A stretch of DNA of 64,000 bases from Bacteroidota bacterium (lineage in GTDB: Bacteria > Bacteroidota > Ignavibacteria > Kapaibacteriales > UBA961), in assembly GCA_041191145.1 (NCBI GenBank), contig JBEEPK010000002.1:3539-67538 (forward strand), given 5' to 3'. This document shows, piece after piece, positions 2,771 to 53,392 of this stretch. The notes under the pieces are model-generated. The model saw only the letters and a list, made by a program, of their open reading frames with translations, had not been told where the DNA came from and searched no databases. The position numbers and the translations under genes are program-made. How positions within the stretch are numbered: position 1 is the first letter of the stretch; every line of letters begins with the position of its first letter.

Positions 2771-4287
2771 AGTTCATAGTGATGATTCTATTATTGATCA
2801 TGGGATGTACTGAAGAAAAAAAGGTAATTACGAAGGTATCAAAGAAGAGAGTCGAAAAAGAGACAAGTGGATTCTTGACATTGCAAAGACAGCCATCAGC
2901 AGACATGGTTGAGTTTAAAGTGTATCTATTAGATTCTATTCATCCTCCATTCAATGTTGATACAATATCATCGTATGATAGATTTCCCGGAATCGCTACC
3001 TTTCGTGGTGGACCATTTCGTGATATGCCATTGACCGGACTCTTGGATTCCATGCCAACCTCATTACACATCGATTGGGTGTTCAAAACAAATGGCGGTA
3101 AATTCGGCGAAGGTGTAAATGGCAAGGGTCGCGGTTGGGGTGGTGGTGCCGGATGGACGGGGCAGCCATGTCTTAAAGTCGATACAATCAAAAAGGCAAT
3201 TACACTGTATCAAGGATCACTTGCGGGTAAAGTTTTTCGTTTGGATTATGCCACAGGAATGGAAACAGATAGTGCCCTTGACATACATAATCCGATCAAA
3301 GGTTCTGTGGCATTAGACCCTGAATTGTCAGATATGCTCTATATAGGACAGGGCATACGATATCAATCGGAATCCGGAGCAAGAGCATTCAATCTCATGA
3401 GTGGAAAACAAGTCGCATTTCAAACTGCATATGATAGACATGCCAAAAGAAGCTGGGGATTTTTTGATAGTTCTCCCATAGCTTGGGGACCCTATCTGAT
3501 ATGGCCTGCTGAAAATGGCATCCTCTATAAATTTCTCAGAACAGCAGATGGGTTTAAGCCACATTCGAAATTTGTGTATTCCGTGAAAGGGAATTCGCAT
3601 CTTGGCTTGGAGGCAAGCATCGCAATCTATGGTAGATATGGAATCTTTGCAGATAATGGTGGAAGCATCATTTGCATTGATCTTGAAACACTCACACCAA
3701 TGTGGTATAGTGCGAATGGTGATGACACCGATGCCACTCCTGTGATTGCAATTGAAAATGGAAAGCCATTTGTATATACAGGATCAGAGGTTGATAAGCA
3801 AGGGAAGCAGGGGATGTCTGTTTTTCGTAAACTTTCAGTCTTGACTGGAGAAGAAATATGGCGATATGAACAAGCTTGTCATTCAATCAGCATTGGCAAA
3901 CATATCCTGAATGGTGGGATGCTTGGTACGCCATTATTGGGTAGAGACAATTGTTCATCAATGATTTTTACATCTTTTGTTCAACATAGACCAGGGAATT
4001 CAGGTGTACTCACTGCTTTCGACAGAGTATCAGGTGCAGTGAAATGGCAAACTGAATTGTCAGCATATTCTTGGTCTTCACCAATTGGCTATATGGTGAA
4101 AGGTGGAGGATTCATTATTCTCATGGGTGATGTCATTGGAAATATCTATGTGATACATGGAACAACGGGTGAAATACTTATCAAACAAAGAGTGGGTTCA
4201 AATTTTGAAGCATCTCCAATACCTTGGAGAAATACGGCTGTGATTACTTCGAGAGGAACAAATATGTATAGGATTTCATTGCGATGA
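2767..4287 (+). CDS. Lipoprotein with PQQ-like/BamB-like beta-propeller repeats, function unknown
   Basis: Lipobox 'LLIMGC'. Repeated G/W-rich blade-like segments. Start overlaps the permease stop by 4 bp (ATGA). Confidence 0.45.
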   Translation: MKFIVMILLLIMGCTEEKKVITKVSKKRVEKETSGFLTLQRQPSADMVEFKVYLLDSIHPPFNVDTISSYDRFPGIATFRGGPFRDMPLTGLLDSMPTSLHIDWVFKTNGGKFGEGVNGKGRGWGGGAGWTGQPCLKVDTIKKAITLYQGSLAGKVFRLDYATGMETDSALDIHNPIKGSVALDPELSDMLYIGQGIRYQSESGARAFNLMSGKQVAFQTAYDRHAKRSWGFFDSSPIAWGPYLIWPAENGILYKFLRTADGFKPHSKFVYSVKGNSHLGLEASIAIYGRYGIFADNGGSIICIDLETLTPMWYSANGDDTDATPVIAIENGKPFVYTGSEVDKQGKQGMSVFRKLSVLTGEEIWRYEQACHSISIGKHILNGGMLGTPLLGRDNCSSMIFTSFVQHRPGNSGVLTAFDRVSGAVKWQTELSAYSWSSPIGYMVKGGGFIILMGDVIGNIYVIHGTTGEILIKQRVGSNFEASPIPWRNTAVITSRGTNMYRISLR

Positions 4288-13679: not shown

Positions 13680-14345
13680 GTGAGTGTTTTTATGATCGAA
13701 GAGCAATTGGACAAAACTAAGGATGATCTCATAAGAGAGAGATTACTATTGACCGCGATGCAAGAATTCATGCAATATGGCTTCAGTCGCATATCTATGG
13801 ACGATTTGGCGATACGCATGGGTATGAGTAAAAAAACGCTCTACAAGTACTATCCATCAAAAGAAGAACTTGTTAAAGCTGTACTAGAACTCAGAAAGCA
13901 AAGAGCCAGTGAGTTAATGGCTTTCATTGAAACAAAAGTACCGAAACATGCCTTTGGAGAAAAAATCGTACAGGTTAGCCAAAAAGTAGCAGAAAGTATC
14001 TCAGAGATTCAGCCCCATGTGATGTACGATTTGAAAAAATCATTTCCCCTGATCTTCGAAGACTTCGATGCATTTAAGAAAGCCAGTATCGTGAAGGGAT
14101 TTACCGCTGCACTGAATGAGGGGAGAGCAAGTGGTGTATTTCGTGATGATATTCCGATTGAACTCGCAGTGCATATGCATTTGACATTGATTTCAACCAT
14201 GATGAATCCAGAGTATTTATCATCTCTGCCATATACACCGCTTCAAGTATTCAATATGATTTTACGCTGTACTATGGAAGGCCTTTGCACAAATAAGGGG
14301 CGTTCCATTGTAGAAGCTTCATTATTCACCAAGACAGTTTTATAA
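13680..14345 (+). CDS. TetR/AcrR-family transcriptional regulator
   Basis: HTH 'ISMDDLAIRMGMSKKTLYKYYPSKEEL'. First gene of the efflux locus. An alternative ATG start lies at 13692. Confidence 0.8.
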   Translation: MSVFMIEEQLDKTKDDLIRERLLLTAMQEFMQYGFSRISMDDLAIRMGMSKKTLYKYYPSKEELVKAVLELRKQRASELMAFIETKVPKHAFGEKIVQVSQKVAESISEIQPHVMYDLKKSFPLIFEDFDAFKKASIVKGFTAALNEGRASGVFRDDIPIELAVHMHLTLISTMMNPEYLSSLPYTPLQVFNMILRCTMEGLCTNKGRSIVEASLFTKTVL

Positions 14346-14346
14346 T

Positions 14347-15693
14347 ATGTATTACCACATCAAGAAGAGTTGTCGAATCATCTTCATGACATTCTTATTT
14401 CTTTATTATCCATGTATGAATGCTGATGCTCAAGACACTCGTTCATTGAGTTTGCAGGATGCCTTGGACATTGGACTTGGTAAGAGCAGAATGCTATCGA
14501 TAGGCAAAGAAAAGATTAAAGCCGCGGATGCGAAAGTTGATGAAGTTCAGGCATCCAGACTACCAGCATTGAAATTTCAGACAGGTTATACCAGACTCAG
14601 TCAGGTGCCACCATTTATTGTTTCGCTTCCGATTCCGGGAACCACTCCATTTACGATTGCACCGGTGATTCTTGATAATTATGTCATGAAATTGAGTGCG
14701 GCACAACCTGTCTTCACAGGCTTTAAATTAGAGAATCTTGAAGAGTCGGCCGAGCTTGCCGCAAAAGCGGTACAATCAGACTATGACAAAGACAAAATTG
14801 AATTGATTGCAATGATCAAAACACAGTATTGGATATATGTGAAAGCCCGGCAATTCGTATTAGTTGCCAAAGAAAATGTGGAGATGCTCAAAGCACATTT
14901 GAAAGATGTGGAGATTCTGAATAAGGCCGGAATGGCACAACTAAATGATATTCTAAAGCTTCAAGTTCAAGTGTCCGAAGCTGAATATCGATTGCTCGAA
15001 GCGAATAATCAAAAGCAATTAGCAATGATGGGATTGAATAATGCTCTGAGATTACCTCTCACAACGAATCTTGAAACAACCGATAATCCTTCAGAAGCAG
15101 GAATACAAATTCCCATTGATAAAATGCTCACGGATGCAATTGAATTCAGACCAGATGTGAAAGCAGCGGATTTTCGCGTGAAGGCAAGTGCATCACAAGT
15201 GAAAGTTGCCGAGGCATCATGGTATCCGCAAGTGAGTGTGTTTGCTGAGTACAATTATAATAATCCAAATATGCGAATCGTGCCGGCAAGATCCCAATTC
15301 GATGATACATGGGCGGCGGGAATTCAACTTACAATGGATGTTTGGAATTGGGGATTGAATTCTTCCCAAACCCAACAAGCTGAAGCGCAATTAGCACAGG
15401 CAATCGATGCCGATTTGCTGACAAAGGAGAGTATTCAAATAGAAGTGATGCAAGCATATACGCTCATGAAACAGGCATCTGATAAAATTCCTGTGACTGA
15501 AACTTCCATCAAACAAGCCGAAGAACAAGTTCGAACAATTAATATTCGCTTCAAAAATGGCAATGCAATCATGACAGATGTATTGGATGCTGAAACTGCT
15601 TTGTTGTTGGCAAAGATGAATAAAGTACAAGCAATCATTGATCTCGAAATTGCTAAAGTGAAATTAGAAAAATCAATTGGACATTCATTATAA
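14347..15693 (+). CDS. TolC-family outer-membrane efflux protein
   Basis: Signal peptide and two OEP repeats. Adjacent to the MFP and RND genes. Confidence 0.8.
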   Translation: MYYHIKKSCRIIFMTFLFLYYPCMNADAQDTRSLSLQDALDIGLGKSRMLSIGKEKIKAADAKVDEVQASRLPALKFQTGYTRLSQVPPFIVSLPIPGTTPFTIAPVILDNYVMKLSAAQPVFTGFKLENLEESAELAAKAVQSDYDKDKIELIAMIKTQYWIYVKARQFVLVAKENVEMLKAHLKDVEILNKAGMAQLNDILKLQVQVSEAEYRLLEANNQKQLAMMGLNNALRLPLTTNLETTDNPSEAGIQIPIDKMLTDAIEFRPDVKAADFRVKASASQVKVAEASWYPQVSVFAEYNYNNPNMRIVPARSQFDDTWAAGIQLTMDVWNWGLNSSQTQQAEAQLAQAIDADLLTKESIQIEVMQAYTLMKQASDKIPVTETSIKQAEEQVRTINIRFKNGNAIMTDVLDAETALLLAKMNKVQAIIDLEIAKVKLEKSIGHSL

Positions 15694-15712
15694 TCCGGAT
15701 AGAGTAATCACC

Positions 15713-16774
15713 ATGAAGAAAATTCTCATACCAACAACAATCATCGTCTTTCTTGCGATCATTATTGGTGTATTGGAGTATAACAAATCGAAGGCAGAAC
15801 AAGTTATTGCCAAGCAGACCTTTGTTCAAAATGCAATTCCAGTGACAATTGCCGAAGCTGAGATAACCGATCTTAGCAATTCACTCACATTAATCGGCAC
15901 AATCATGGCCGGAAGTGATGTCAATATCGTATCAGAGGCAGGTGGACGAATTATACGATTACAAGCAAATCCAGGTCAATTTGTTTCAGCAGGATCAGTA
16001 ATAGCTGAAATTGATTCAGAATTGCGAAGAGCTTCTGTCATGAATGCACAAGCAGCTTATGATAAAGCAAAAACGGATTATGATAGAACTGAGAAAATGT
16101 TCAAAGAGGGCGTTGTGAATGCAATGCAAATGGATCAGGCACGATATGGATTTCAAGCTTCTGAAGCTCAACTCATTATGTCGAAAAGACAATTGCGTGA
16201 TACAAAAGTCACAACGCCTATCAGCGGAATTATCAATGCAAGAATGGTGGATCAAGGAGCGACTGTGGGTATTAATGCTGTGATTGCAAATATCGTTGAT
16301 ATTTCCACTTTAAAAGTGAAAGTAAATGTGTCTGAAAAAGATGCATTTGCATTGAAAAATGGTGATAAAGTTATTGTAACAACTGATGTATATACAGGAA
16401 TTGAATTCCCGGGTACAGTTTCTTCGATAGCTCCCAAAGCTGATGAAGCTCATACATATCCAATTGAAATCCGCATGTCAAATTCAAAACAATATCCATT
16501 AAAGGCGGGTATGTTTGGAAGAGTATCATTCACAAGTATTAAAAAATCTGATGCTTTGATTATACCACGAAGTGCATTGATAGGAAGTATCAAAAATCCA
16601 AAAGTGTTTGTCGTTACAGATGGAAAAGCAGAATTGCGTGATGTACAAACAGGCGCTGATGCAGGAACAAAACTTGAGATTATATCGGGTTTGCAAGCAG
16701 GAGAGTCAATAGTTACGAATGGACAAAACAATCTTCGTCCTGGATCGAAAGTCACCATTATCAATAAGAAGTAA
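15713..16774 (+). CDS. Efflux RND periplasmic adaptor subunit (MFP/HlyD family)
   Basis: N-terminal TM segment and lipoyl/beta-barrel adaptor motifs. The internal start 'MKKILIPTT' was chosen to avoid overlapping TolC. Confidence 0.8.
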   Translation: MKKILIPTTIIVFLAIIIGVLEYNKSKAEQVIAKQTFVQNAIPVTIAEAEITDLSNSLTLIGTIMAGSDVNIVSEAGGRIIRLQANPGQFVSAGSVIAEIDSELRRASVMNAQAAYDKAKTDYDRTEKMFKEGVVNAMQMDQARYGFQASEAQLIMSKRQLRDTKVTTPISGIINARMVDQGATVGINAVIANIVDISTLKVKVNVSEKDAFALKNGDKVIVTTDVYTGIEFPGTVSSIAPKADEAHTYPIEIRMSNSKQYPLKAGMFGRVSFTSIKKSDALIIPRSALIGSIKNPKVFVVTDGKAELRDVQTGADAGTKLEIISGLQAGESIVTNGQNNLRPGSKVTIINKK

Positions 16775-16782
16775 ATACCACA

Positions 16783-19700
16783 ATGACTATCACCGAATTA
16801 TCAATAAAAAGGCCGACACTTGTTGTTGTATTATTTACAGTGCTCGGTATCCTGGGTGTTTTTGGCTATTCACAATTGAAATATGAATTATTGCCAAAAA
16901 TTAGTCCTCCTGTTGTGGTTATTACAACAATATACCCCGGTGCTTCGCCTCAAGAAGTTGAAAATGGAATTACCAAATACATCGAGGATGCTGTTTCCTC
17001 ACTAGATAAGGTTACGGCAGTACGCTCGACTTCTGCTGAAGGTATTTCAGTTGTCACCATTGAATTGACTCAATCTGCAAAAGTTGATATCGCCTTACAA
17101 GATGCACAGAGAAAAGTCAATGCCGCCCAACAATTGCTTCCCAAGGATGCCAGAACTCCGGTTCTGTCAAAAATAGCTCTTGATGAAATTCCTGTTTTGC
17201 GTGTTGGTGCAACGAGTACGATGAACACTCGTGAATTTTATCAATTCATGAAGGATAAGATTCAGCCCGCTTTGTCGAAAGTCGAAGGTGTTGGTAATAT
17301 CTCTTTGCTTGGTGGAGAAGAAAGAGAAATTAAAGTGAATGTTGATATTGAAAAAGTTCGTGGTTATGGACTTGGCCTAAATCAAATCGCAGGCATGATC
17401 AAAGCTTCCAATTTGGATTTTCCAACAGGAAAAATCAAGGATAGTGATGGACAATTCATTGTTCGTTTAGCTGGGAAATTTTCAACAATCGAGCAAATCG
17501 AGAATATCATCATTGGTAGATCTAAATCGGGTGGTGATATCAAATTGAAAGACATAGCAGAAATTGAGGATGGTCGAAAAGAATATGCATCTATCAGTAG
17601 ATTGAATGGAATCACGACAATCGCCGTTCTCGTGCAAAAACAAAGTGATGCCAATTCAGTGGATGTGAGCAAAAAAGTACGCGCTCAAATGAAGAGTCTC
17701 GAAGAACAATATGCCGAGAAGAAACTCGCATTTACAATTGCCCAAGATGGATCTTTGTTTACAATCGAAGCTGCAGATGCAGTGAAATTCGATCTCATCA
17801 TAGCAATTATCCTCGTAGCTGCAGTGATGTTCATCTTTCTGCATTCACTTCGTAATTCATTGATCGTTATGATTGCCATTCCCGCATCGCTTCTAACCAC
17901 CATCTTTGCGATGTACATGCTCAATTATTCGTTCAATTTGATGACACTCCTTGCGATGTCACTCGTGATCGGTATTCTCGTCGATGATTCAATCGTGGTA
18001 TTGGAGAATATTTACAGACATCTTGAAATGGGAAAAGACAGGATTACTGCTTCCATTGAAGGTAGAAATGAAATTGGATTTGCAGCTTTGTCGATCACTC
18101 TTGTGGATGTCGTGGTATTTGTTCCACTATCGGTTGTCGGTGGTTTGGTTGGTAATATCATGCGTGAATTTGCGGTGGTCGTATTCACCTCAACTCTCAT
18201 GAGTTTGCTTGTTTCATTTACGATCACACCTGCTCTTGCTTCAAGACTTGCTAAACATGAACATCTTTCTCAAAATTCTCTCATGGGCAGACTCGCCTTA
18301 ATGTTTGAGAGATTCTTTGATAAGATTACGGGTCAATATGAACAAGTACTCGAATGGGCTTTACGAAAGCGATTGAGCAGAATGATTGTAATTATTGGAT
18401 CTTTCTTGGCAATCATCGGTGGCATGGCTCTGGTACCTCTTGGATATATCGGTGCTGAGTTCATTTCTCAATCAGATCGTGGTGAATTTGCAGTCACTGT
18501 AGAGATGCCTCCACAATATTCCGTTGAAGAAACAAATTATACGGCACTCTATATCGAAGAATTATTGAGAAGTTTTCCTGAGACAGAGCGAATATTTACA
18601 TCTGTTGGTGTTTCCAATGAAGGATTGATTGGGCAAAATTCAAATAATGCTGCAGAATTTAATGTAACCCTGAAGCCAGCCAAACAAAGACAGCGCTCGA
18701 CAGATGAGATCGGTATGCTGATGAAAGAAAAAATATCAACGATTCCAGGCGCAAAAGTCCGAGTAAATCCCATTGGTATTTTTGGTACGGCTAATCAAAC
18801 GCCAATCCAAATCGTGGTGAATGGAACGAGTTTTGAGGAAGTCTATGCTTCCGCTTCAAAACTTGCGAATGTAGCAAGATCTATCAAAGGAGCTCAAGAT
18901 GTCCGATTGAGCGTTGATGATGGAAAACCCGAATCCAGAATTGAAATTGATCGTGATAAATTGGCAGCATTTGGTTTGACCATCGGTGAAATAGGAAATT
19001 CATTGCAGATTGCACTAACTGGTGACAATTCCGCGAAATATCGTGATGGAAATACTGAATATGATATGCGTATTTTCCTCGATGAATATGATCGTTCGGA
19101 AACAGAGAAATTACTTCGCTTGCCATTTATTAATGCAAAAGGACAACAAGTTGAATTGCAACAATTCGCCTCGATTGTACCCGCAAGTGGTCCAACCAAA
19201 TTGCAAAGGGAAAATCGCAATACGGCAATTACTGTCTTTTCTCAAGCTGTAGGCAGACCTTCTGGCAATATCGTTGCTGATATTCAAAAAGGAATGGAAA
19301 AAGAGCAATTGCCTGCTGGTGTATCAATTTCTTATCTCGGGGATCAAAAGAATATGCAAGAATCATTTGTGAGCCTGGGACTTGCTCTCGGCGCAGCGAT
19401 TCTATTTGTGTATTTGATCATGGTTGCTTTATATGATTCATATATTTATCCATTTGTGGTATTATTCTCCATACCGGTTGCATTTGTTGGAGCTTTACTC
19501 GCGATGGCATTGAATATGAAAGCATTGGGTATATTTCCAATCTTGGGTATCATCATGATGATTGGATTGGTGGCAAAAAATGCGATTTTGCTTGTAGATA
19601 GAGCCAATCAAAATCGTCTTGAAGGTTTGTCGATCATGGAATCGCTTTTGGAATCAGGTCGTACCAGATTGCGACCCATCCTCATGACAACAGTGGCAAT

Positions 19701-19929
19701 GGTTTTGGGAATGCTTCCAATTGCAGTTTCGAAAAGTTCAGGAGCTGAATGGAAAACCGGATTGGCATGGGCCATCATTGGAGGTTTGACCAGCTCGCTA
19801 CTCCTAACATTGGTATTGGTTCCGGTGATTTATCATATCGTTGAATCAATAAAAGATAAAAGGGCAAAAAAGAAATCAAAGACATCAGATCGTACACTTG
19901 CTGAAATGAATGAAGGATTTACTTCATGA
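16783..19929 (+). CDS. RND efflux permease (AcrB/CzcA family)
   Basis: 1048-aa 12-TM protein with the typical 'MTITELSIKRP' start and a conserved TM4 region. Confidence 0.9.
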   Translation: MTITELSIKRPTLVVVLFTVLGILGVFGYSQLKYELLPKISPPVVVITTIYPGASPQEVENGITKYIEDAVSSLDKVTAVRSTSAEGISVVTIELTQSAKVDIALQDAQRKVNAAQQLLPKDARTPVLSKIALDEIPVLRVGATSTMNTREFYQFMKDKIQPALSKVEGVGNISLLGGEEREIKVNVDIEKVRGYGLGLNQIAGMIKASNLDFPTGKIKDSDGQFIVRLAGKFSTIEQIENIIIGRSKSGGDIKLKDIAEIEDGRKEYASISRLNGITTIAVLVQKQSDANSVDVSKKVRAQMKSLEEQYAEKKLAFTIAQDGSLFTIEAADAVKFDLIIAIILVAAVMFIFLHSLRNSLIVMIAIPASLLTTIFAMYMLNYSFNLMTLLAMSLVIGILVDDSIVVLENIYRHLEMGKDRITASIEGRNEIGFAALSITLVDVVVFVPLSVVGGLVGNIMREFAVVVFTSTLMSLLVSFTITPALASRLAKHEHLSQNSLMGRLALMFERFFDKITGQYEQVLEWALRKRLSRMIVIIGSFLAIIGGMALVPLGYIGAEFISQSDRGEFAVTVEMPPQYSVEETNYTALYIEELLRSFPETERIFTSVGVSNEGLIGQNSNNAAEFNVTLKPAKQRQRSTDEIGMLMKEKISTIPGAKVRVNPIGIFGTANQTPIQIVVNGTSFEEVYASASKLANVARSIKGAQDVRLSVDDGKPESRIEIDRDKLAAFGLTIGEIGNSLQIALTGDNSAKYRDGNTEYDMRIFLDEYDRSETEKLLRLPFINAKGQQVELQQFASIVPASGPTKLQRENRNTAITVFSQAVGRPSGNIVADIQKGMEKEQLPAGVSISYLGDQKNMQESFVSLGLALGAAILFVYLIMVALYDSYIYPFVVLFSIPVAFVGALLAMALNMKALGIFPILGIIMMIGLVAKNAILLVDRANQNRLEGLSIMESLLESGRTRLRPILMTTVAMVLGMLPIAVSKSSGAEWKTGLAWAIIGGLTSSLLLTLVLVPVIYHIVESIKDKRAKKKSKTSDRTLAEMNEGFTS

Positions 19930-20098
19930 CATTACATGTGATCACTGGAATGCTCTGCTTATTCTTATTCGGCAGAATGCTCTTTCTATTCAAATCATTG
20001 GGAGACAAACAGAAGCAAAATTCTCCCATTTTGAAGGAATTGCTCACTTTACTTGGATTGACGGCATTATTGCCATTCATACTATCATTATTTGCACA

Positions 20099-22678
20099 TT
20101 GAAGAAATTGATTCATAAATATCTATCATTGGGATGTATCATTTTCATGATTGCATCCCATCTTGCATTCGGGGAAATGCAAGATCAAGTTTCCTTTGTT
20201 CTGATGAAACAATTGAGAATGCCGATTGCTCAATCATATTTGACTGATGTAGAATTGCCAATGGAGTATATTCTAAATCAATGGAAAGCAGGATATCATG
20301 TATCTGGAATATCACATGGTGATAAAGGGTATGCCATAATCATGAATGGCGGTTTGATTCCTCAGAAAATTATATCATCGGATACTTTTCCAAGCACTCA
20401 ATTGCGAGATTATATGGCAATGGGTTTTCGCATGACTTCAATTTCAGCACATGCGGGAAAATGGGATATAGTTATGTCACTCGAAAATGGAGTATACTCT
20501 CAAGTTATAACCACACACACTCAATTTCCTGCAAAGCATATTCAAGAATATTGGGAGAAAGGATTTCGCATCGCATGCATTGAGTTTGGGAATGGTTTAT
20601 GGACTCTTGCCATGAATAGGGCAATGTTCACACAATCACAATCCTATGTCACCACTGATTCAATCCCCGAGAGAATTACATCTCTCATGAAAGGACTTGC
20701 AATAAGATCTTGCATGAATGTTCAAGGTAAATATTTTATTGTCGGAGAGGGCGGAGATGATGGCGCGCCGTATTTGCTTCTCTCAAAAGATTCACTCCGA
20801 AAGGAGATAATCGATACAGCATGGCAGAAGCGGTATGCTCTTTTGGAGTTTCAAATGGAGAGAAAACCTATACGGTATATGCTTCCTGAATATCAATTGA
20901 AAGAACAATTCATTGAGTCATTGGATCTTACCACTGTGCCATCAGACTCAATGCGACATGAAGAATTTAATACACATATTTTGATATGCAAAGATCATGG
21001 TAGCGCTCGAATTGCGATGCGAAGAAGAGCTCAATCGTATTTATTGAGAAAGGATACTGCTTCAGCGATTGATGTATATGTGCGATATAGAGAACTCATC
21101 CCGAAGCATAGAGCATGGATTGATTCTTCGATTGCATTGCTCACCATGCCTATCCAACCATTGGAAATCATCAATATCGGACAACCCATCAATACAAATG
21201 GATCCGAATGGGACCCGGTGCCATCACCTGATGGAAAATATTTGTTCCTCTCCGTGAGAGATCGCATTGGTGGGGAAGGAAGACAAGATGTATTTGTCTC
21301 CGAACGAAAGGATTCACTTCCTGGATCTCCATGGGGAATCCCAAAAAGCATTGGACAAGGCGTGAATTCTGCACAAGGTGAAGAAACGATAGACAATGTT
21401 TCAACAGATGGTAATACAATTTTATTATCAGGAACATTCCCCGGATCATATGGAAAATTTGACATTTATACAGCAGAAAGAACTTCATTTGGTTGGGATA
21501 ATCTCAGACAAATGCCTCGTCCAATCAATTCAGAATATCATGATGAAAGTGGATGTTTCAGCTCAGATGGAAGAGTTATTTTATTTAGTTCTGAAAGACC
21601 AGGTGGAATTGGTGGGATAACAGTACCCATGAATTATCGTTATGCAGATGGAACGCATGGGAATATGGATTTATGGGCTTGCATCAAAACTGATACAGGA
21701 TGGAGTGAACCAATCAATCTCGGACCAAATATCAATACTCCATTTGCCGAACGCTCACTGTTTCTACATCCTGATGGTAGGACTTTGTATTTCTCAAGCA
21801 ATGGACATCCCGGACTTGGCGGTTTGGATGTATACAAATCATATAGGGTACATGAAGATTCTTGGACTGAATGGACTGTTCCTCAAAACTTGGGTCGCTC
21901 CATCAATACATTGGATGATGATTTCAGTTATAAAATCACGGTGAATGGTGATACTGCCTATTATGCGGCTCAAGATGCTCCGGGAGGCTTTGGACAATGG
22001 GATGTGTATAGAGTGATACTTCCAAAAGATGTAAGACCGCAACCAATTGCATCTATTTCAGGAAAAGTGATTTCAAAGAAAGATGGACTTTCCATTTCCG
22101 CAACAATCATCTGGGAAGATCTGAGCACCGGAAAAACAATTGGTTCATCGAGAATCAATCCGGTAGATGGCTCATTTTTCATCGTTCTTCCACTCGGAAA
22201 AAAATATGGATATTATGCAAGCTCTCCAGGGTACTTTCCTTCATCATCAAATATTGATTTACGAAAAAACACAAAATCATTGACAAGAAAACAAATCATC
22301 GAATTGTCTAAAATGCCTGATGAACAAGCAAAAGAAGTTACTATTGAATTGACCAATGTCTTCTTTGACTTCCTTTCTTCCGAACTCTTGAAAGATTCAT
22401 ATCCTGAATTACAAAGATTGGCTGATATCATCAAAGAAAGAAAGTATCAGAAAATCCTCATAGCCGGACATACTGATGATAGGGGGTCTGATGCATTCAA
22501 TAATGATCTTTCACAAAAAAGGGCAGAATCCGTGAAAAAGTATCTTGTTAGCTTGGGAATTGCATCAGAATACCTGAAAACGCAGGGATTTGGGAAGAGA
22601 AAACCACGATATGTCGGGAAATCTGAGGAAGAAAGAGCGGGTAATAGAAGAGTGGAAGTCACCATAATCAAAGAATAA
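20099..22678 (+). CDS. OmpA-family protein with TolB-like PD40 beta-propeller repeats and an N-terminal ~45-aa repeat domain of unknown function
   Basis: The C-terminus carries the OmpA/MotB peptidoglycan-binding motif 'IAGHTDDRGSDAFNNDLSQKRAESV'. The middle carries PD40 repeats ('PSPDGKYLFLS', 'FSSDGRVILFSSERPGG', 'LHPDGRTLYFSSNGHPG'). A start at TTG 20099 gives the signal peptide MKKLIHKYLSLGCIIFMIASHLAFG. The track's ATG at 19910 overlaps the RND stop and is unlikely. Confidence 0.65.
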   Translation: MKKLIHKYLSLGCIIFMIASHLAFGEMQDQVSFVLMKQLRMPIAQSYLTDVELPMEYILNQWKAGYHVSGISHGDKGYAIIMNGGLIPQKIISSDTFPSTQLRDYMAMGFRMTSISAHAGKWDIVMSLENGVYSQVITTHTQFPAKHIQEYWEKGFRIACIEFGNGLWTLAMNRAMFTQSQSYVTTDSIPERITSLMKGLAIRSCMNVQGKYFIVGEGGDDGAPYLLLSKDSLRKEIIDTAWQKRYALLEFQMERKPIRYMLPEYQLKEQFIESLDLTTVPSDSMRHEEFNTHILICKDHGSARIAMRRRAQSYLLRKDTASAIDVYVRYRELIPKHRAWIDSSIALLTMPIQPLEIINIGQPINTNGSEWDPVPSPDGKYLFLSVRDRIGGEGRQDVFVSERKDSLPGSPWGIPKSIGQGVNSAQGEETIDNVSTDGNTILLSGTFPGSYGKFDIYTAERTSFGWDNLRQMPRPINSEYHDESGCFSSDGRVILFSSERPGGIGGITVPMNYRYADGTHGNMDLWACIKTDTGWSEPINLGPNINTPFAERSLFLHPDGRTLYFSSNGHPGLGGLDVYKSYRVHEDSWTEWTVPQNLGRSINTLDDDFSYKITVNGDTAYYAAQDAPGGFGQWDVYRVILPKDVRPQPIASISGKVISKKDGLSISATIIWEDLSTGKTIGSSRINPVDGSFFIVLPLGKKYGYYASSPGYFPSSSNIDLRKNTKSLTRKQIIELSKMPDEQAKEVTIELTNVFFDFLSSELLKDSYPELQRLADIIKERKYQKILIAGHTDDRGSDAFNNDLSQKRAESVKKYLVSLGIASEYLKTQGFGKRKPRYVGKSEEERAGNRRVEVTIIKE

Positions 22679-47720: not shown

Positions 47721-47850
47721 TGTTATATCTCCGATTGAAATCACATACAAACATACAATAGTTACTGCTATGCATTGATATATCCAATTCCACTGCTTGT
47801 TCATTAGGTAATCATGAGTATATTTGGAGGTTAAAAGGAAGCATTACAAC

Positions 47851-48666
47851 ATGGTAAAAAATCTACTATTTCTGGTCATCAGTCTTTTTGCACTCTGTGG
47901 AGTGATGGTACAAGCCGATTTGACTGAAATTTTGAGCTTTGGTGCACCCCCTTCTTCAACAGGTGCCCCCGGTGAAATTACTTGTGCTGAATCTGGTTGT
48001 CATGATGATGGACCAATTCCACAGAATCATGTATCTCATACACTGAGTTTAGAAACGAGAAATGGTGTTTTCATTCCCGGTGATACTGCATTGATCACTA
48101 TTCATGTACAAGACCCTGAAGTTCAGAGATTCGGTTTTCAATTGACTGCAATAAATGAAAATGGAAAGGCATTGGGAGAATTTTTGATTACAGATTCTAT
48201 GCATACTCAGATGATGCAAAATCATGTGAATCTGACGGATAGAGAATATGTGACATATACAAAAGCGGGAACACTTGCACAGCAAAGAGGGAAGCATTCT
48301 TGGACTTTTAAATGGATCATACCACAAACACAGTCTAGTTTTGCCAGGTTTTACCTTGCAACAGTTTCAGCGAATAATGACAATAGAGATAAAGGTGATA
48401 GAGTATTTCTGAGAGACACTATCATTTCTCTTCAGAAAGTAAATTCTGTGCTTGATAATAAAGAAATCTCGATTGAGCAAAAAGGTAAAAACTTGATCGT
48501 GCATCAAGAATTCAATCCCAAACCGATAAAAGTCTACACAATATTAGGTGATATCTACAGAGAATATCCCGGTAATTATGTTCAATCAAGTATTGATCTT
48601 ACTGATTTTCCAAATGGATTGTATGTATTGAAAACCGGTAATATTCTTCATTCATTTATTCCTTGA
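47851..48666 (+). CDS. Secreted protein with N-terminal 'STGAPGEITCAESGCH' motif and T9SS-like C-terminal sorting domain (paralog A)
   Basis: Signal peptide MVKNLLFLVISLFALCGVMVQA. Shared motifs with the downstream paralog. C-terminal 'LTDFPNGLYVLKTGNILHSFIP' matches a Por_Secre_tail pattern. Confidence 0.6.
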   Translation: MVKNLLFLVISLFALCGVMVQADLTEILSFGAPPSSTGAPGEITCAESGCHDDGPIPQNHVSHTLSLETRNGVFIPGDTALITIHVQDPEVQRFGFQLTAINENGKALGEFLITDSMHTQMMQNHVNLTDREYVTYTKAGTLAQQRGKHSWTFKWIIPQTQSSFARFYLATVSANNDNRDKGDRVFLRDTIISLQKVNSVLDNKEISIEQKGKNLIVHQEFNPKPIKVYTILGDIYREYPGNYVQSSIDLTDFPNGLYVLKTGNILHSFIP

Positions 48667-48672
48667 CATACA

Positions 48673-49545
48673 ATGAAATCATCAATATTACTCTCAATCA
48701 TCATGTGTTTTGTTTTTGGAAGCATTGCTTCAGCAATTTCTGATGAAAAAAATGGTGAATATACCTTTAAATCATCTGGATCACATGAAAGTAGTACAGG
48801 TGCACCCGGTGATCGCACATGTGCTCAGTCAGGCTGTCATGAAATGAGCGAAATAATCAATGATGATACAACGAATACTTTGATCTTTTCTGATGGTGAT
48901 GGATTGTATGGAAATGCGATGGAAGGAATTAGACTGAGAGTACGCAAAGAAGATAAAGTCAAATTTGGATTTCAAATCGTATGTCTTGATTCTCTCAATA
49001 AAAATGCTGGTTCATGGGTTCTGTTGAATAAAGAAAGAGTTCAAACTCAAGGTGCAGATTTTTTCTTGGTAAGTGCTTTTGGAAGATCTTATGTAACCCA
49101 TACCTATAAAGGTAACTTGGCTCAAGTACCAGGTGAAATATACTGGGATTTTGCTTGGTTGCCCCCTGCAAATGGATATCAGGGAAAAGTCACTTTTTAT
49201 GTCATGAGCAATTGTGCAAACAATGACAACACGAATGGTGGTGATACTTTTTATGCCTCAAAGCATACATTACGACATATGTCAAGCATGACATCAATTG
49301 AAGATGATGGACAAATCCCTTGTAAAATTGGGCATAACACATGGTTCTTACCAATGAATCTTCATCATGAGATTACACAAATTCGATGCATTGATATAAA
49401 GGGTAGAGTCCAACTCATTAACTGGAATATCATTGGTGATCAGGGATTCGAAATTACATTGCCATCAACCGATTTGAGAGGATTTGTTACTCTCATCATT
49501 GAATTCGAGAATGGGATAACACTGAAAAAACACGTAATTATCTGA
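48673..49545 (+). CDS. Secreted protein with N-terminal 'STGAPGDRTCAQSGCH' motif and T9SS-like C-terminal sorting domain (paralog B)
   Basis: Signal peptide. Shares the 'SSTGAPG..TCA.SGCH', 'FGFQ', 'THTYKGNLAQ' and 'ANNDN..GD' blocks with paralog A. C-terminal 'GFVTLIIEFENGITLKKHVII' tail. Confidence 0.6.
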   Translation: MKSSILLSIIMCFVFGSIASAISDEKNGEYTFKSSGSHESSTGAPGDRTCAQSGCHEMSEIINDDTTNTLIFSDGDGLYGNAMEGIRLRVRKEDKVKFGFQIVCLDSLNKNAGSWVLLNKERVQTQGADFFLVSAFGRSYVTHTYKGNLAQVPGEIYWDFAWLPPANGYQGKVTFYVMSNCANNDNTNGGDTFYASKHTLRHMSSMTSIEDDGQIPCKIGHNTWFLPMNLHHEITQIRCIDIKGRVQLINWNIIGDQGFEITLPSTDLRGFVTLIIEFENGITLKKHVII

Positions 49546-49627
49546 ATTTGATTCTGATACTGTAAGGAATTCAATACTTTTGTGTCTTACTCTTTGGCGG
49601 ACGCCTTGTCCGTATTGAGAACCACGG

Positions 49628-49987
49628 ATGCAAGACATTATGGCGGACTCAGAAGTGCATACAATCAAAGAAGTTAGCTTGATTGTTGATGAAGAACAAC
49701 ATGTTCTTCGTTATTGGGAAAGAGAATTTGCTTTTCTCAATCCCCAGAAAAATGAAGCAGGAAATAGGATGTACACTTCAGTTGATTTGGCAATTGTCAA
49801 GGAATTGAAGCGATTGATCAGAACGGAAAGGAAAACCATACAGGAAGCAAGGAAAGCTTTTCTTGAACAATATCCCGATGGCATTGTAGAAATACCAAAA
49901 GTTAGCAAGGTTCAATCTCAAGGTAATTCTGATTTGTCTCAAATACAATCTGAATTAGAAGAGATTATCAAAAAGCTCAAAACCTAA
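49628..49987 (+). CDS. MerR-family transcriptional regulator
   Basis: HTH 'HTIKEVSLIVDEEQHVLRYWEREF' followed by a coiled-coil. Confidence 0.6.
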   Translation: MQDIMADSEVHTIKEVSLIVDEEQHVLRYWEREFAFLNPQKNEAGNRMYTSVDLAIVKELKRLIRTERKTIQEARKAFLEQYPDGIVEIPKVSKVQSQGNSDLSQIQSELEEIIKKLKT

Positions 49988-50037
49988 GATTAGTACATAA
50001 CAACTCAACATTTAAAGTAATTTGGGAATCACACAAG

Positions 50038-51054
50038 ATGCGCAATATGCTCAAGTATGTCGCAATCCCTATTGCAAGTTATATGATGATGTCTTTTTCG
50101 ACATTTGCGCAACAGCGCACATATGACTTGAAAACAGTAGGAAAGCATGATGATGAAGTTCTCGGTGTATTTGTCAATGGAGACAATACACGATTTGCAA
50201 CTTCTAGTTTGGATGAAAGCATAAAAATTTGGTCAATACCTGAAGGGAAGGATTTGATCACCATCAAAGGTCACCTTGGTCATGTCAATAATATTTCATT
50301 TTCCGGTGATGACAAGCAAATTGCTAGTGCAAGCACTGATCGTACAGTAAGAGTATGGGATGTTGCAACAGGCACACAGCAATATGTACTCACAGGACAT
50401 ACAGCAGAAGTAATTGGCGTATATTTTAGTCCTAAAAATGATTATATCGCTAGTACTAGTTTTGATCGAACCGTAAAATTGTGGGACACCAAACTTCGTA
50501 CGGAAGTCAAGACTTTACGCGGTCATACTGATAAAACAAATGATGTTGCGTATAGTTATGATGGACAATATCTTGCTTCATGCAGTGATGATAAAACAAT
50601 CAAAATATGGAGTACAGACATTAACTCAAAAGAGGCATTATTGACACTGACAGGACATGATACTCAAGTATTAACAGTCCTTTACAGTTTTGATTCCAAA
50701 AGACTTGCTTCTGCTGATGAAAAAGGCGTTGTTAAAATATGGGAAATGCCATCTGGCACTTTGCTCCGTACAATCAATGCTCATAATGAAATCGTTCAGT
50801 CTGTTTCTTGGGCAGAAGACAATCGTACTATTGTTACTGCAAGCCTTGACAAGTTCGTTAAGCTTTGGAATAGTGATACAGGTGAAAATTTGATGTCGAT
50901 GGATGTAGGTTCTGATATCTGGGGTGTTGATTTAACCAGTAGTGCCGATCATATCATGGTTGGTTGCGCCGATGGTACTGTCAAAATGTTGGTCGAGAAA
51001 AAAGAAGCAATCAAAGGCAAAGAAAAACCCAAAGGCAAAGGAGGTAAAAAATGA
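50038..51054 (+). CDS. Signal-peptide WD40-repeat beta-propeller protein with Lys-rich C-terminus
   Basis: Cleavable signal 'MMMSFSTFAQQ'. Seven WD repeats ('GH.D.V..V.FSPDG...AS.S.D.T.K.W'). Confidence 0.75.
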   Translation: MRNMLKYVAIPIASYMMMSFSTFAQQRTYDLKTVGKHDDEVLGVFVNGDNTRFATSSLDESIKIWSIPEGKDLITIKGHLGHVNNISFSGDDKQIASASTDRTVRVWDVATGTQQYVLTGHTAEVIGVYFSPKNDYIASTSFDRTVKLWDTKLRTEVKTLRGHTDKTNDVAYSYDGQYLASCSDDKTIKIWSTDINSKEALLTLTGHDTQVLTVLYSFDSKRLASADEKGVVKIWEMPSGTLLRTINAHNEIVQSVSWAEDNRTIVTASLDKFVKLWNSDTGENLMSMDVGSDIWGVDLTSSADHIMVGCADGTVKMLVEKKEAIKGKEKPKGKGGKK

Positions 51055-51755
51055 AATATCTATCGTATCTCCTGCTTTCAAGTTTATTCTTGATTTTTAG
51101 CTTTAATTCTGTTTCTGCTCAGCAAATCATGAGTGTTACCGGAGCTGTAATAGATCAGACGACTCGAAATCCTGTCAGCATAATCGTGTCATTCTATGAT
51201 AAAAACAATAAAAAAATGGGTTCTTCAAAAAGCAACTCTGCAACAGGTTATTATCTTGTAACAGGTTTGAAGCAAGGCGAAACCTATAAAGTGCAACTTG
51301 AATCTCCTGATTATTTCAAAGATGAATTTGAAGTTACGCTTCCCGTGTCCAAGAAATATGCTGATGTTTCTCGTGACTTTGCAGTTAAGCCTCTAGCTAA
51401 AGGCACAAAGATCCTATTGGAAGTGGCTCCATTTGAATTGAAGAAGTCTAAACTTCGAGTGGGTGCTGAAGATTATCTGGCAGATGTAAAAAAAATGATG
51501 ATCTTAAATCCAGGTGTTACAGTTGAAATTCAGACATATCCAGATGCCGAAGGTGACCCAGCGGTGAATGAGACATTCACCATGGAAAGAGCTCAAGCAA
51601 TCAAGAAGTATTTGGTAGATAATGGGGTACGCGAGCAGAAAATAGTACTCAAAGCTTCAGGTCAGACTGATAGCATTAATCCACCTCCAAAGTATAAAAC
51701 AGCGAAAGGAAAACGCTATATCGGACCAATTTATATAGTAGTTACCAAGGTATGA
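51051..51755 (+). CDS. OmpA-like/carboxypeptidase-regulatory-like domain protein, secreted
   Basis: Signal peptide. N-terminal CarbopepD_reg-like beta-sandwich ('VTGAVIDQTTRNPV'). Degenerate OmpA_C-like C-terminal region ('ERAQAIKKYLVDNGV'). Overlaps the WD40 gene by 4 bp. Confidence 0.5.
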   Translation: MKYLSYLLLSSLFLIFSFNSVSAQQIMSVTGAVIDQTTRNPVSIIVSFYDKNNKKMGSSKSNSATGYYLVTGLKQGETYKVQLESPDYFKDEFEVTLPVSKKYADVSRDFAVKPLAKGTKILLEVAPFELKKSKLRVGAEDYLADVKKMMILNPGVTVEIQTYPDAEGDPAVNETFTMERAQAIKKYLVDNGVREQKIVLKASGQTDSINPPPKYKTAKGKRYIGPIYIVVTKV

Positions 51756-51794
51756 TTCAGTAATAGCATCTGAAGACTTTTTTCCTATCTTGCA

Positions 51795-51826
51795 GGGCAT
51801 TCATGTGAATGCCCTCATTATTTTAA
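51795..51826 (+). terminator. Rho-independent terminator
   Basis: GGGCATTC-atgt-GAATGCCC hairpin followed by a T-rich tract. Confidence 0.65.
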
Positions 51827-51832
51827 AGAAAG

Positions 51833-53392
51833 ATGAGCAATTATTCAGATAGAAGAGATTTTCTTAAAGTGCTGATCGGGGGAACCGGTGCAGCATTTCT
51901 CGCACTGCACGGTTGTGGAGATGACACATCTAAAATACAAAGGGTTGCCGGTCCTAATCCTGAGACCATACTCAAAAGACAAAGATTCTCCATTGCACAT
52001 CAATATGTGCGTGATAAAAGTATAGATGGGGCAAAGAATAATAATGTACCATTGCAATGTGATGTAGTAATAATCGGAGCAGGAGCTTCTGGTTTGGCAG
52101 CTGCATTGACATTACATGATGCGGGTTACGATGTGTTATTGCTTGAAAATGAAAGTCAAGTAGGAGGTGCAGGAATTCATGGAAGCATGCATGATATAAA
52201 ATATCCATATGGCTCTGTTTATTTTGTTGATTACTCGGATGATATTAAAAAGATCTGTGCAAGAACAGGCTTGCAACCATTGCCCGCACCTGAAGATGCG
52301 GTATTGCATCAAGGACAATTGATTGGTAATTTTTGGTCAGATGCATCTCTTCAATCTTTAGAAGTATCTCAAATTGAAAAAGATGGTATGAAGCTATTCA
52401 GGGATGTGCTTTTAAATGATCAAAAGGTCCCTTCCTATCCTTTGCCTCGAGTATTGTCGAAATATGAAGCAGAATTGGATGCACAATCTGCAAAGGATTA
52501 TCTGTCTCAATTTTCTTCCCCATATCTTGAAACATTGCTTGATCTTTATTCAAGATCTTCAATGGGTGGTGCATTAAATGAATCCAATGCATATTGCTTA
52601 TTAAACTTTTATTCTTCTGAGATTGGAAGCGAGTTTGGAAAAGATCGCTTTACTTTTCCTGGTGGTATGAATGCACTGTACAAAGCAATTGCTACTCTGA
52701 TCCCACAGGAAAAGGTGATGACAAATCATTTGGCATTTGCAATTGTAAATACAAAAGATGGCGTTGAAGTATCCTGTGTGAGTGATGACAATGAAATCAG
52801 AAAAGTGAAGGCAAAAAAAATCATTATGACAGGTCAAAAACATGTTTCTGCTTTTATGATTCAAGATTTACCAGACGCTCAAAGATCAGCGATGATGTCA
52901 ATGCAATATCCTCCATATGCCACCATGCATTTTACATGTGAAGAAGAACTCTTTCCGAATCATATCATGGATGTATGGACTCCCGAGGCTACCCCATTTT
53001 GTACTGATATCATTTGTTCAAATGCAATGCAAGGATCTAAGAAGAAGTATGATCATCATGTGTACTCAATTTTTGGTGCAATGCCACAACAGCAAAGAAG
53101 TGTTTTGTTGGATGATCAAGCCATGGCCAAACATGGTGTAGACATTATTTCAAAAACAATGAAGTATCTTGGCAAGTCGCTTGATTCAATTTCTCAAATT
53201 GAAGTATTTGGATGGGGACATGCCCTTGCAATACCATTTCCCGGCTCACATAATGGTCCGGCTCAATTGGCTTCTGCCAGACATGGAAATATCTTCTTCG
53301 GTGCATCTGACAATGATGCCGCATCTAGCGTAGAGAATGCACTTGCAAATGGTTTCGCTTCAGGTAGGGAGGTCATTCAGTCATTGAATTAA
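51833..53392 (+). CDS. Tat-exported FAD-dependent oxidoreductase (amine-oxidase/phytoene-desaturase-like), probable lipoprotein
   Basis: Twin-arginine signal 'RRDFLKVLIGGTGAAFLALHGC'. Dinucleotide-binding 'VVIIGAGASGLAAAL...LLENESQVGG'. Confidence 0.65.
   Translation: MSNYSDRRDFLKVLIGGTGAAFLALHGCGDDTSKIQRVAGPNPETILKRQRFSIAHQYVRDKSIDGAKNNNVPLQCDVVIIGAGASGLAAALTLHDAGYDVLLLENESQVGGAGIHGSMHDIKYPYGSVYFVDYSDDIKKICARTGLQPLPAPEDAVLHQGQLIGNFWSDASLQSLEVSQIEKDGMKLFRDVLLNDQKVPSYPLPRVLSKYEAELDAQSAKDYLSQFSSPYLETLLDLYSRSSMGGALNESNAYCLLNFYSSEIGSEFGKDRFTFPGGMNALYKAIATLIPQEKVMTNHLAFAIVNTKDGVEVSCVSDDNEIRKVKAKKIIMTGQKHVSAFMIQDLPDAQRSAMMSMQYPPYATMHFTCEEELFPNHIMDVWTPEATPFCTDIICSNAMQGSKKKYDHHVYSIFGAMPQQQRSVLLDDQAMAKHGVDIISKTMKYLGKSLDSISQIEVFGWGHALAIPFPGSHNGPAQLASARHGNIFFGASDNDAASSVENALANGFASGREVIQSLN

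Follow-up and report, generated by a model that had tools for sequence, protein, structure and literature searches.

A window of 64,000 nucleotides from a Bacteroidota bacterium (GenBank assembly GCA_041191145.1, contig JBEEPK010000002.1, positions 3,539 to 67,538) carries three consecutive forward-strand genes, hereafter the trio. The first (49628-49987) is an open reading frame (ORF) of 119 aa encoding a MerR-type winged helix-turn-helix (wHTH) protein that has no sensor domain. The second (50038-51054, 338 aa) encodes a predicted exported, seven-blade canonical WD40 propeller, and the third (51051-51755, 234 aa) a predicted exported protein, CRD-OmpA, that joins a putative carboxypeptidase regulatory-like domain (CRD) to an OmpA_C domain predicted to bind peptidoglycan. 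As read from the sequence, the stop codon of the WD40 gene overlaps the start codon of the CRD-OmpA gene in an ATGA (51051-51054, forward strand), the hallmark here of translational coupling. The Shine-Dalgarno (SD) sequence of the OmpA-like gene, GGAGG at 51040-51044, lies within the last WD40 codons (in frame as ...KGGKK), 7 nt before the start.

The unit ends at an intrinsic-terminator-like hairpin with a T-rich tail (51794-51825, forward strand), 39 nt past the last stop. The hairpin proper spans 51794-51815, has a 9-bp stem with 5 G-C pairs and is followed by CATTATTTTA; a regional scan counted such sites no more often than expected by chance. A first-pass annotation made from the letters of this DNA had described the same layout of three genes, ATGA overlap and downstream terminator, and we recovered all of these features. 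GC content is even throughout the region, so nothing points to recent transfer. Searched against Rfam at E ≤ 1, the leader and spacers gave a single spurious long noncoding RNA match, and thus no known RNA element. We also dropped a defence-system reading of the locus, as PADLOC returned merely one generic repeat match.

Conservation and co-divergence of the trio

Scanning one genome per species with the WD40 alignment turned up 562 relatives. Locus counts given below refer to the best 80 species-level loci (designated by L numbers), in which the WD40 protein is 56-98% identical to that of the window. The OmpA-like gene lies directly 3' of the WD40 gene in 78 of these 80 loci, and the MerR-like gene directly 5' of it in 69. 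One of the two loci without an OmpA-like gene stops at a contig end (L067), and the other is a lone WD40 gene (L086). Chance adjacency of the WD40 and OmpA-like genes is rejected, given how consistently their order is kept. The first-pass annotation had left room for the pairing to be absent from relatives; it is instead a regular feature of them.

Junctions within the trio are tight. The median gap between the WD40 and OmpA-like genes is 7 nt; among 77 junctions there are 17 overlaps (12 of -4 and 5 of -1 nt), 21 gaps of 0-5 nt and 33 of 6-30 nt. An SD-like tetramer precedes the OmpA start in 61 of the 77 and falls inside the WD40 ORF in 40. The spacer between the MerR-like and WD40 genes has a median of 53 nt and is mostly ≤ 100 nt. 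Terminator-like sites follow the OmpA gene in 38 of 75 loci, compared with 2 of 70 MerR-WD40 spacers, 7 of 81 intra-ORF regions and 3 of 75 opposite-strand controls, and the hairpin seen in the window is kept with minor changes in L008-L013. We regard the operon structure and its conservation as near-certain, and it is the trio that is conserved as a unit, very probably expressed as one transcript.

Homologues of the OmpA-like protein carry the labels Kapabacteria, Ignavibacteria or Chlorobiota. Three distant homologues (39-55% identity) sit in the same order of a MerR gene, a gene for a protein of ~335 aa and an OmpA-like gene, with wholly different flanks; the middle protein of these distant trios is clearly orthologous to the WD40 protein and has a signal peptide. 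When 420 flanking ORFs were clustered, no fourth gene common to different clades emerged, and synteny beyond the trio is clade-specific (rpoZ, an FtsW/RodA-like gene, an amine oxidase). In one clade of 16 loci (L023-L026, L032, L036, L041, L043, L045, L050, L053, L055, L061, L062, L066 and L080), an FtsW/RodA-like (SEDS) gene lies ~35 nt 5' of the MerR-like gene on the same strand, with a histidine kinase gene before it. In another clade, of 23 loci, rpoZ lies upstream and is divergently transcribed.

The two exported proteins have also diverged together. Their distance matrices correlate with r = 0.86, and the six MerR-less loci group into one identical clade whether the WD40 or the OmpA-like proteins are clustered. 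Two genomes, SCSM01 (L035 and L039) and JBEKWK01 (L048 and L076), each hold two WD40/CRD-OmpA pairs, one from the MerR-less clade and one linked to a MerR-like gene. The shared MerR-less clade indicates that the WD40 and CRD-OmpA genes duplicated and diverged as a unit, with the MerR-like gene an accessory of the primary copy. Judged by mean pairwise identity (0.65 for the WD40 protein, 0.43 for its OmpA-like partner), the propeller is the much more constrained member of the pair.

Many trio-bearing metagenome-assembled genomes (MAGs; L021, L025, L027, L031, L038, L043, L053 and others) are labelled Hyphomicrobiales, Patescibacteria, Chloroflexota, Bradyrhizobiaceae or Didemnitutus. Those labels are probably wrong, because the MAGs share synteny and have WD40 identities of 56-68%. 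Precomputed Pfam records give no family for the WD40 orthologues in L001, L004 and L006, although these are unmistakable WD40 proteins, and context tables built on such records can miss WD40 orthologues.

Two predicted exported proteins

The second gene product matches the Pfam WD40 family (PF00400) with E = 6.4e-60. Six repeats are scored by the profile and seven GH...WD units can be counted in the sequence, between residues 31 and 322. PD40 is absent from the 25 best of the 50 matching Pfam families. The blade-4 motifs NNVAYSYDG and EVKTLRGH are invariant. In a sequence search of the PDB, 2YMU from Nostoc ranks first (E = 2e-202), followed by WDR5 and PkwA. The window protein thus shares a sequence family and the seven-blade fold with Nostoc punctiforme 2YMU, Thermomonospora PkwA and WDR5 (E from 2e-202 to about 1e-56). 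The seven blades proposed in the first-pass annotation therefore stand; its description of them as eukaryote-type was overstated, with a cyanobacterial protein as the top solved match and PkwA matching too. Those relatives act in the cytoplasm or are joined to kinase or signalling domains, whereas the window protein is a single-domain protein with a predicted signal peptide and a conserved partner that is predicted to bind peptidoglycan. As judged from sequence, it is the conserved export signal and the fixed partnership that make this WD40 protein unusual.

Residues 1-24 (50038-50109, forward strand) form a predicted Sec-type signal peptide, with cleavage predicted between STFA and QQ. By a strict heuristic, 76 of 81 orthologues have a hydrophobic core ahead of the conserved mature domain, and those that fail it reflect start-codon or truncation artefacts. 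The cleavable signal peptide of the first-pass annotation thus appears to be a property of the family, and signal-less WD40 homologues are not the rule. The orthologues have no Tat (twin-arginine translocation) motif and no conserved lipobox, a lipobox-like string being present in 7 of 81. The protein does end in the basic tail that had been described as poly-Lys, although this varies between 5 and 24 aa among orthologues and is almost lacking in some. The ...KGGK ending is largely the downstream SD sequence in frame; a [K/R/E]GG in the tail of 40 of 68 orthologues has the same origin.

The N-terminus of the CRD-OmpA protein is built in the same way: it is charged and leads into a hydrophobic core and then a site of the A-x-A type. 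Its predicted signal peptide covers residues 1-23, with signal peptidase I-type cleavage between SVSA and QQ and no Cys, and hydrophobic cores are found in 75 of 79 orthologues under the strict heuristic, with the misses again due to start-codon or truncation artefacts. The orthologues of this protein, too, lack a Tat motif and a conserved lipobox (a lipobox-like string occurs in 2 of 79). Both products of the pair therefore carry predicted export signals, as first proposed.

Pfam recognises an OmpA domain in the protein (E = 9.3e-10, 39.2 bits versus a cutoff of 27.2). CarboxypepD_reg (PF13620) scores below its cutoff (E = 1e-3, 19.9 bits versus 32.3), and is recorded for many orthologues. 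An AlphaFold2 (AF2) model built from 28 family members has a predicted local distance difference test (pLDDT) score of 89.6 and shows a signal helix followed by two domains: residues 26-112 form a beta-sandwich, and residues 120-233 an alpha/beta domain of the OmpA_C type. The sandwich (51126-51386, forward strand), defined by the AF2 strands, is CRD-like, with Foldseek matches to the transthyretin-like domain of carboxypeptidase D (5AQ0) and to CnaB2 (8BDW). The OmpA_C-like domain (51408-51749, forward strand) bears an invariant C-terminal motif, NPxP..K.[AS]KGKRYIG. For the model as a whole, Foldseek placed PorE's C-terminal domain (6TOP) first, followed by Pal, TolB/Pal, OprF, OmpA and TagL (E about 3e-6 to 1e-4).

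The match to PorE extends to the predicted binding site. In PorE, the side chains of D576, N584 and R591 bind the diaminopimelate (DAP) residue of the stem peptide (PMC7192894). The equivalent residues here, D165 (51543-51545), N173 (51567-51569) and R180 (51588-51590; the triad codons together span 51543-51590 on the forward strand), have the identical D-x7-N-x6-R spacing and are predicted to contact peptidoglycan DAP; D165 and R180 are invariant in the 28 family members. The domain had been called degenerate. It is indeed divergent in sequence: where GHTD is usual it has YPD, and NRRVEI is replaced by KGKRYIG. Functionally, however, it does not look degenerate as far as sequence can tell, because the peptidoglycan-contact triad of PorE is kept at the same spacing.

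The MerR-like gene and neighbouring genes

The product of the first gene of the trio matches MerR_1 (PF13411; E = 1e-14, 54.8 bits versus a cutoff of 21.6). Among PDB sequences, its helix-turn-helix is closest to CarH/LitR (2e-11), CarA and the GlnR/TnrA DNA-binding domains. NCBIfam models for CarH, MlrA, MerR and HspR match this part alone, far below their cutoffs. An AF2 model (pLDDT 82) comprises a complete wHTH (residues 11-81), a disordered linker (82-95) and a single 23-residue helix (96-118); there is no effector or sensor domain past this C-terminal helix. The low-complexity linker is 14 residues long in the window and runs to several dozen in orthologues, and the terminal amphipathic helix is kept. 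A word-indexed homologue search with this protein returned members of the window's own clade only. Foldseek ranks the RacA DNA-binding domain first, with HiNmlR, CueR, MtaN, CarH and GlnR also matched. A MerR-type wHTH without a ligand-binding domain and with a C-terminal helix set apart is common to the window protein, HiNmlR ('a MerR family regulator lacking the sensor domain'), GlnR/TnrA, RacA and the CarH/LitR DNA-binding domain. The B12 domain of CarH is missing, as is, in the AF2 model, the continuous alpha-5 coiled coil that directly follows alpha-4 in classical MerR proteins.

An alignment of 8 close relatives defines a candidate promoter/operator region upstream of the gene (49562-49590, forward strand). 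It contains an invariant block, GTAAGGAA (49562-49569), 5' of a Bacteroidota-type -7 box, TACTTTTG (49575-49582), that lies at -53 throughout the window's clade. The arms of a clade-specific dyad, GTAAG (49562-49566) and CTTAC (49586-49590), flank the box as GTAAG-N19-CTTAC. More widely, TAnnTTTG occurs in 18 of 68 upstream regions, compared with 7.4 expected (shuffle maximum 15). In the leader, a small hairpin, CGGAC-GCCTT-GTCCG (49597-49613, forward strand), is a weak feature: its position is kept while L012 has the stem GAGGA/TCCTC and L013 the stem ACGGG/CCCGT, and its folding energy is not significant (z = -1.47).

The first-pass annotation named this gene a MerR regulator and suggested looking for its operator between 49546 and 49627. 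A MerR-type DNA binder is indeed encoded upstream of the pair in most genomes; it carries no sensor domain, and the block and dyad in that interval belong to the window's clade. Searches of 56-68 upstream regions with k-mers, dyads and mismatch-tolerant seeds found no family-wide MerR operator, despite a well-conserved recognition helix, and A/T runs were near the level of shuffled controls. With no effector domain, RacA as the best fold match and a paralogous WD40/CRD-OmpA pair that does without it, the protein could instead be a small DNA-binding or nucleoid-associated (RacA-like) protein that merely shares the transcription unit. We consider this rather unlikely, as the gene is directly upstream in 69 of 80 loci, across spacers that are mostly ≤ 100 nt and have hardly any terminators, and as the conserved block and dyad surround the -7 box in the window's clade. 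A role as dedicated regulator of the pair is plausible.

Tandem paralogues (47824-48666 and 48673-49545), for which NCBIfam reports a 'choice-of-anchor V' domain (E about 1e-19), lie immediately upstream of the MerR-like gene. The first of them also has weak matches to Reeler and to Por_Secre_tail, the C-terminal type IX secretion system (T9SS) signal. Outside the window's own clade (8 loci), the synteny of these paralogues with the trio is not kept. Just downstream of the trio, a flavin amine oxidase gene (51833-53392) is syntenic with it in that clade and two other loci only (10 loci). Its product is probably a Tat-exported periplasmic flavoenzyme, as its N-terminus is of the twin-arginine type (SDRRDFLKVLIGG). 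Further away, the 506-aa product of the gene at 2767-4287 weakly matches BamB/PQQ-type propellers and is thus one more predicted propeller protein of the window.

The window also encodes a fused PD40-CRD-OmpA protein. The first-pass annotation had reported this gene at 20099-22678, and it is real, with a longest reading frame of 19910-22678; a TTG start at 20099 gives a lipoprotein-like N-terminus, MKKLIHKYLSLGC. The protein scores 219 bits against CHU_0125 and 199 bits against PorE. Its gene directly follows an efflux operon of TetR, outer-membrane factor, HlyD and AcrB genes (13680-22678 in all), and the frame from 19910 overlaps the AcrB stop at 19929. The gene for this predicted wall-anchored propeller may therefore share a transcript with those of an RND pump.

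A proposed propeller and OmpA_C wall anchor

The CRD-OmpA_C unit is homologous, by its sequence, to the C-termini of PorE/CHU_0125-like proteins. Residues 15-206 of the CRD-OmpA protein align to positions 413-597 of the 648-position NCBIfam PorE model (NF052230) with E = 1.7e-12, and residues 44-209 to the C-terminus of the CHU_0125 model with E = 1.2e-9, in both cases far below the cutoff of the model. The protein also aligns over both domains with the fused PD40-CRD-OmpA protein of the window (24% identity, E = 5e-11). When 1.84 billion representatives were searched exhaustively with a profile, about 50 belonged to the ~235-aa CRD-OmpA family, and in the next tier of matches the whole CRD-OmpA unit occupies a C-terminal or nearly C-terminal position in proteins of 450-940 aa. 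PD40 repeats with a CRD and/or an OmpA domain, often also with TPR, are present in 14 of 20 such outgroup proteins examined, which is the PorE/CHU_0125 architecture. PorE itself has been described as a series of TPR, WD40(-like), CRD and OmpA_C domains, in which the OmpA_C domain is essential, the CRD is dispensable and the propeller probably contacts PorP (PMC12773672).

We lean, without great confidence, towards the view that the Kapabacteria trio encodes a wall-anchored periplasmic scaffold of the PorE/CHU_0125 kind, split into two proteins and with a WD40 propeller in place of PD40. In this scheme, merR-like, wd40 and crd-ompA would form a lineage-specific transcription unit of Kapabacteria (FCB group, a low-GC MAG lineage), read as a single transcript from near 49590 to the hairpin at 51794. 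Translational coupling would fix the proportion of WD40 to CRD-OmpA protein. Both proteins would leave the cytoplasm by Sec and be released as soluble periplasmic proteins. CRD-OmpA would then dock non-covalently on the peptidoglycan stem peptide through the D165/N173/R180 pocket of its OmpA_C domain. The propeller would bind CRD-OmpA and offer its other surfaces to an outer-membrane or other envelope partner, much as PorE may do with PorP, and by that analogy would keep the partner in register with the cell wall. The MerR-like protein, a DNA binder with a tethered C-terminal helix, is probably co-transcribed and may autoregulate the unit. More tentatively, the scaffold could be a hub that arose in Kapabacteria by fission of a PorE/CHU_0125-type anchor, with non-homologous replacement of PD40 by a separately exported WD40 protein, and that serves as a tether or as an anchor for a secretion machine. 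With the same reserve, we suggest that a hub of this origin is a core feature of the lineage, expressed together with the sensor-less MerR-type protein.

Several observations weigh against this scheme. Contact between the WD40 and CRD-OmpA proteins is a conjecture drawn from gene pairing and the analogy with PorE, and both proteins are without a lipid anchor or membrane barrel with which to reach the outer membrane. None of the 20 outgroup proteins examined fuses a true WD40 domain (PF00400) to CRD-OmpA, so that any Rosetta-stone inference draws on PD40, a propeller that is analogous but not homologous. For the WD40 protein there is no NCBIfam match, and it shows no sequence similarity (E > 1) to the PD40 propeller of the fused gene in the window. 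N173 varies in part of the family. The signal peptides were judged only by a hydrophobic-core heuristic and by conservation. Most of the compared genomes are MAGs with unreliable taxon labels. In L086 (3917-4948), and in no other locus, the WD40 orthologue stands by itself, with no MerR-like or OmpA-like gene beside it. This locus contains runs of N and has an ABC transporter gene downstream, and both gene loss and an assembly artefact are possible. For the regulatory part, the missing family-wide operator and the MerR-less pair count in the same direction.

Part of this evidence would also fit two independent co-expressed proteins: the WD40 protein could be a scaffold, or possibly enzyme-like, in another process, and CRD-OmpA a generic peptidoglycan binder, both sharing an operon as envelope proteins. 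The propeller is so much the more conserved of the two that its main constraints could stem from other partners, and the lone gene in L086 and the deduced nature of the interaction agree with that. Periplasmic propeller scaffolds with unrelated partners are known, for example Rv3035-FecB (PMC13041763). We nevertheless regard independence as unlikely in view of the adjacency in 78 of 80 loci with a median junction of 7 nt and frequent stop/start overlap, the joint duplication and divergence of the pair, and the fusion of CRD-OmpA_C to a propeller in 14 of 20 outgroup proteins. The first-pass annotation proposed an envelope-tethering or sensing module, and envelope tethering is still the best reading.

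Should the trio be the Kapabacterial PorE itself, a true T9SS component that was split and had its propeller exchanged, the PorE-like C-terminus and the 6TOP fold match would be expected. The putative cargo of a T9SS that is encoded just upstream, with its weak matches to Por_Secre_tail, could be read in the same way, as could an 810-aa outgroup protein (P0187) that fuses a PorP/SprF outer-membrane barrel to OmpA domains, a barrel-to-wall link that parallels PorP-PorE. This identity is very unlikely. CRD-OmpA reaches 46.4 bits against the PorE family model, which has a cutoff of 600; neither it nor the WD40 protein has a TPR match in Pfam, lipoboxes are lacking and the propeller is non-homologous. 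A far closer PorE/CHU_0125-like gene (199-219 bits) is already present in the window, the flanks of the 80 loci contain no T9SS gene linked to the trio in any clade, and the cargo-like genes accompany it in the window's own clade only.

Pairs of a propeller and an OmpA_C peptidoglycan binder (TolB-Pal, PorE, CHU_0125) are a diderm way of coupling outer-membrane machines to the cell wall. The operon would realise the same design with a different propeller family, split over two translationally coupled genes. No fewer than 78 species-level genomes from an uncultured lineage have the pair, which is annotated there only as 'OmpA family protein' or 'hypothetical'. Should the complex exist, it would represent a clean non-homologous domain displacement in an envelope anchor and a rare canonical WD40 protein working in the periplasm; the conserved propeller (at least 56% identity across 80 species-level genomes) would then be a handle for finding the envelope partner. 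If the fission reading holds, a bacterial G-beta-type WD40 protein would gain a defined periplasmic role. The operon alone does not open a long-standing question. Our literature search returned no paper that joins Kapabacteria and WD40 and nothing informative on Kapabacteria with T9SS.

So, which known system does the pair most resemble? The first-pass annotation was reminded of TolB-Pal, built from unrelated folds. That is wrong for one half: the OmpA_C domain is homologous to Pal, as the Foldseek matches to Pal, TolB/Pal and PorE indicate. Both systems combine, for the present pair by prediction, a periplasmic beta-propeller with an adjacently encoded OmpA_C-type peptidoglycan binder, and this shared logic, together with the fold matches to Pal and the TolB/Pal complexes, might suggest a functional replacement of TolB-Pal, in which the propeller would alternately bind and release the OmpA-like protein and so drive constriction or stabilisation of the outer membrane. 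We consider such a replacement highly improbable. TolB has an extra N-terminal alpha/beta domain and a six-blade PD40 propeller, whereas the window protein consists of a signal peptide and seven WD40 blades only. Pal is a lipoprotein without a CRD, whereas CRD-OmpA has a CRD-like sandwich and no lipobox, and so cannot tether the outer membrane as Pal does. Moreover, tolQ/R/A-like genes are absent from the flanks of the 80 loci and from the neighbourhood in the window.

PorE and CHU_0125 are the better comparators, because the pair reproduces their series of beta-propeller, CRD and OmpA_C in two polypeptides. With PorE it shares this series and, as predicted here, a periplasmic location. PorE is one lipoprotein chain of about 670 aa that starts with a TPR and has a PD40-type propeller of five blades; the pair consists of two predicted soluble polypeptides with no TPR and no lipid anchor, and its seven-bladed WD40 propeller is unlike that of PorE in sequence. 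CHU_0125, the 'Pal-like' outer-membrane integrity protein of Cytophaga hutchinsonii, is likewise an FCB-group combination of a propeller and an OmpA_C peptidoglycan binder, in this case within one fused TPR-PD40-OmpA_C protein, and the window already encodes a closer relative of it (219 bits). Loss of CHU_0125 harms outer-membrane integrity (PMC5891637), which suggests an envelope-integrity role for the pair as an alternative to secretion. The trio is thus a real and conserved unit without a description in the searchable literature, and one that is a variation on the known propeller and OmpA_C wall anchors, not a new category.

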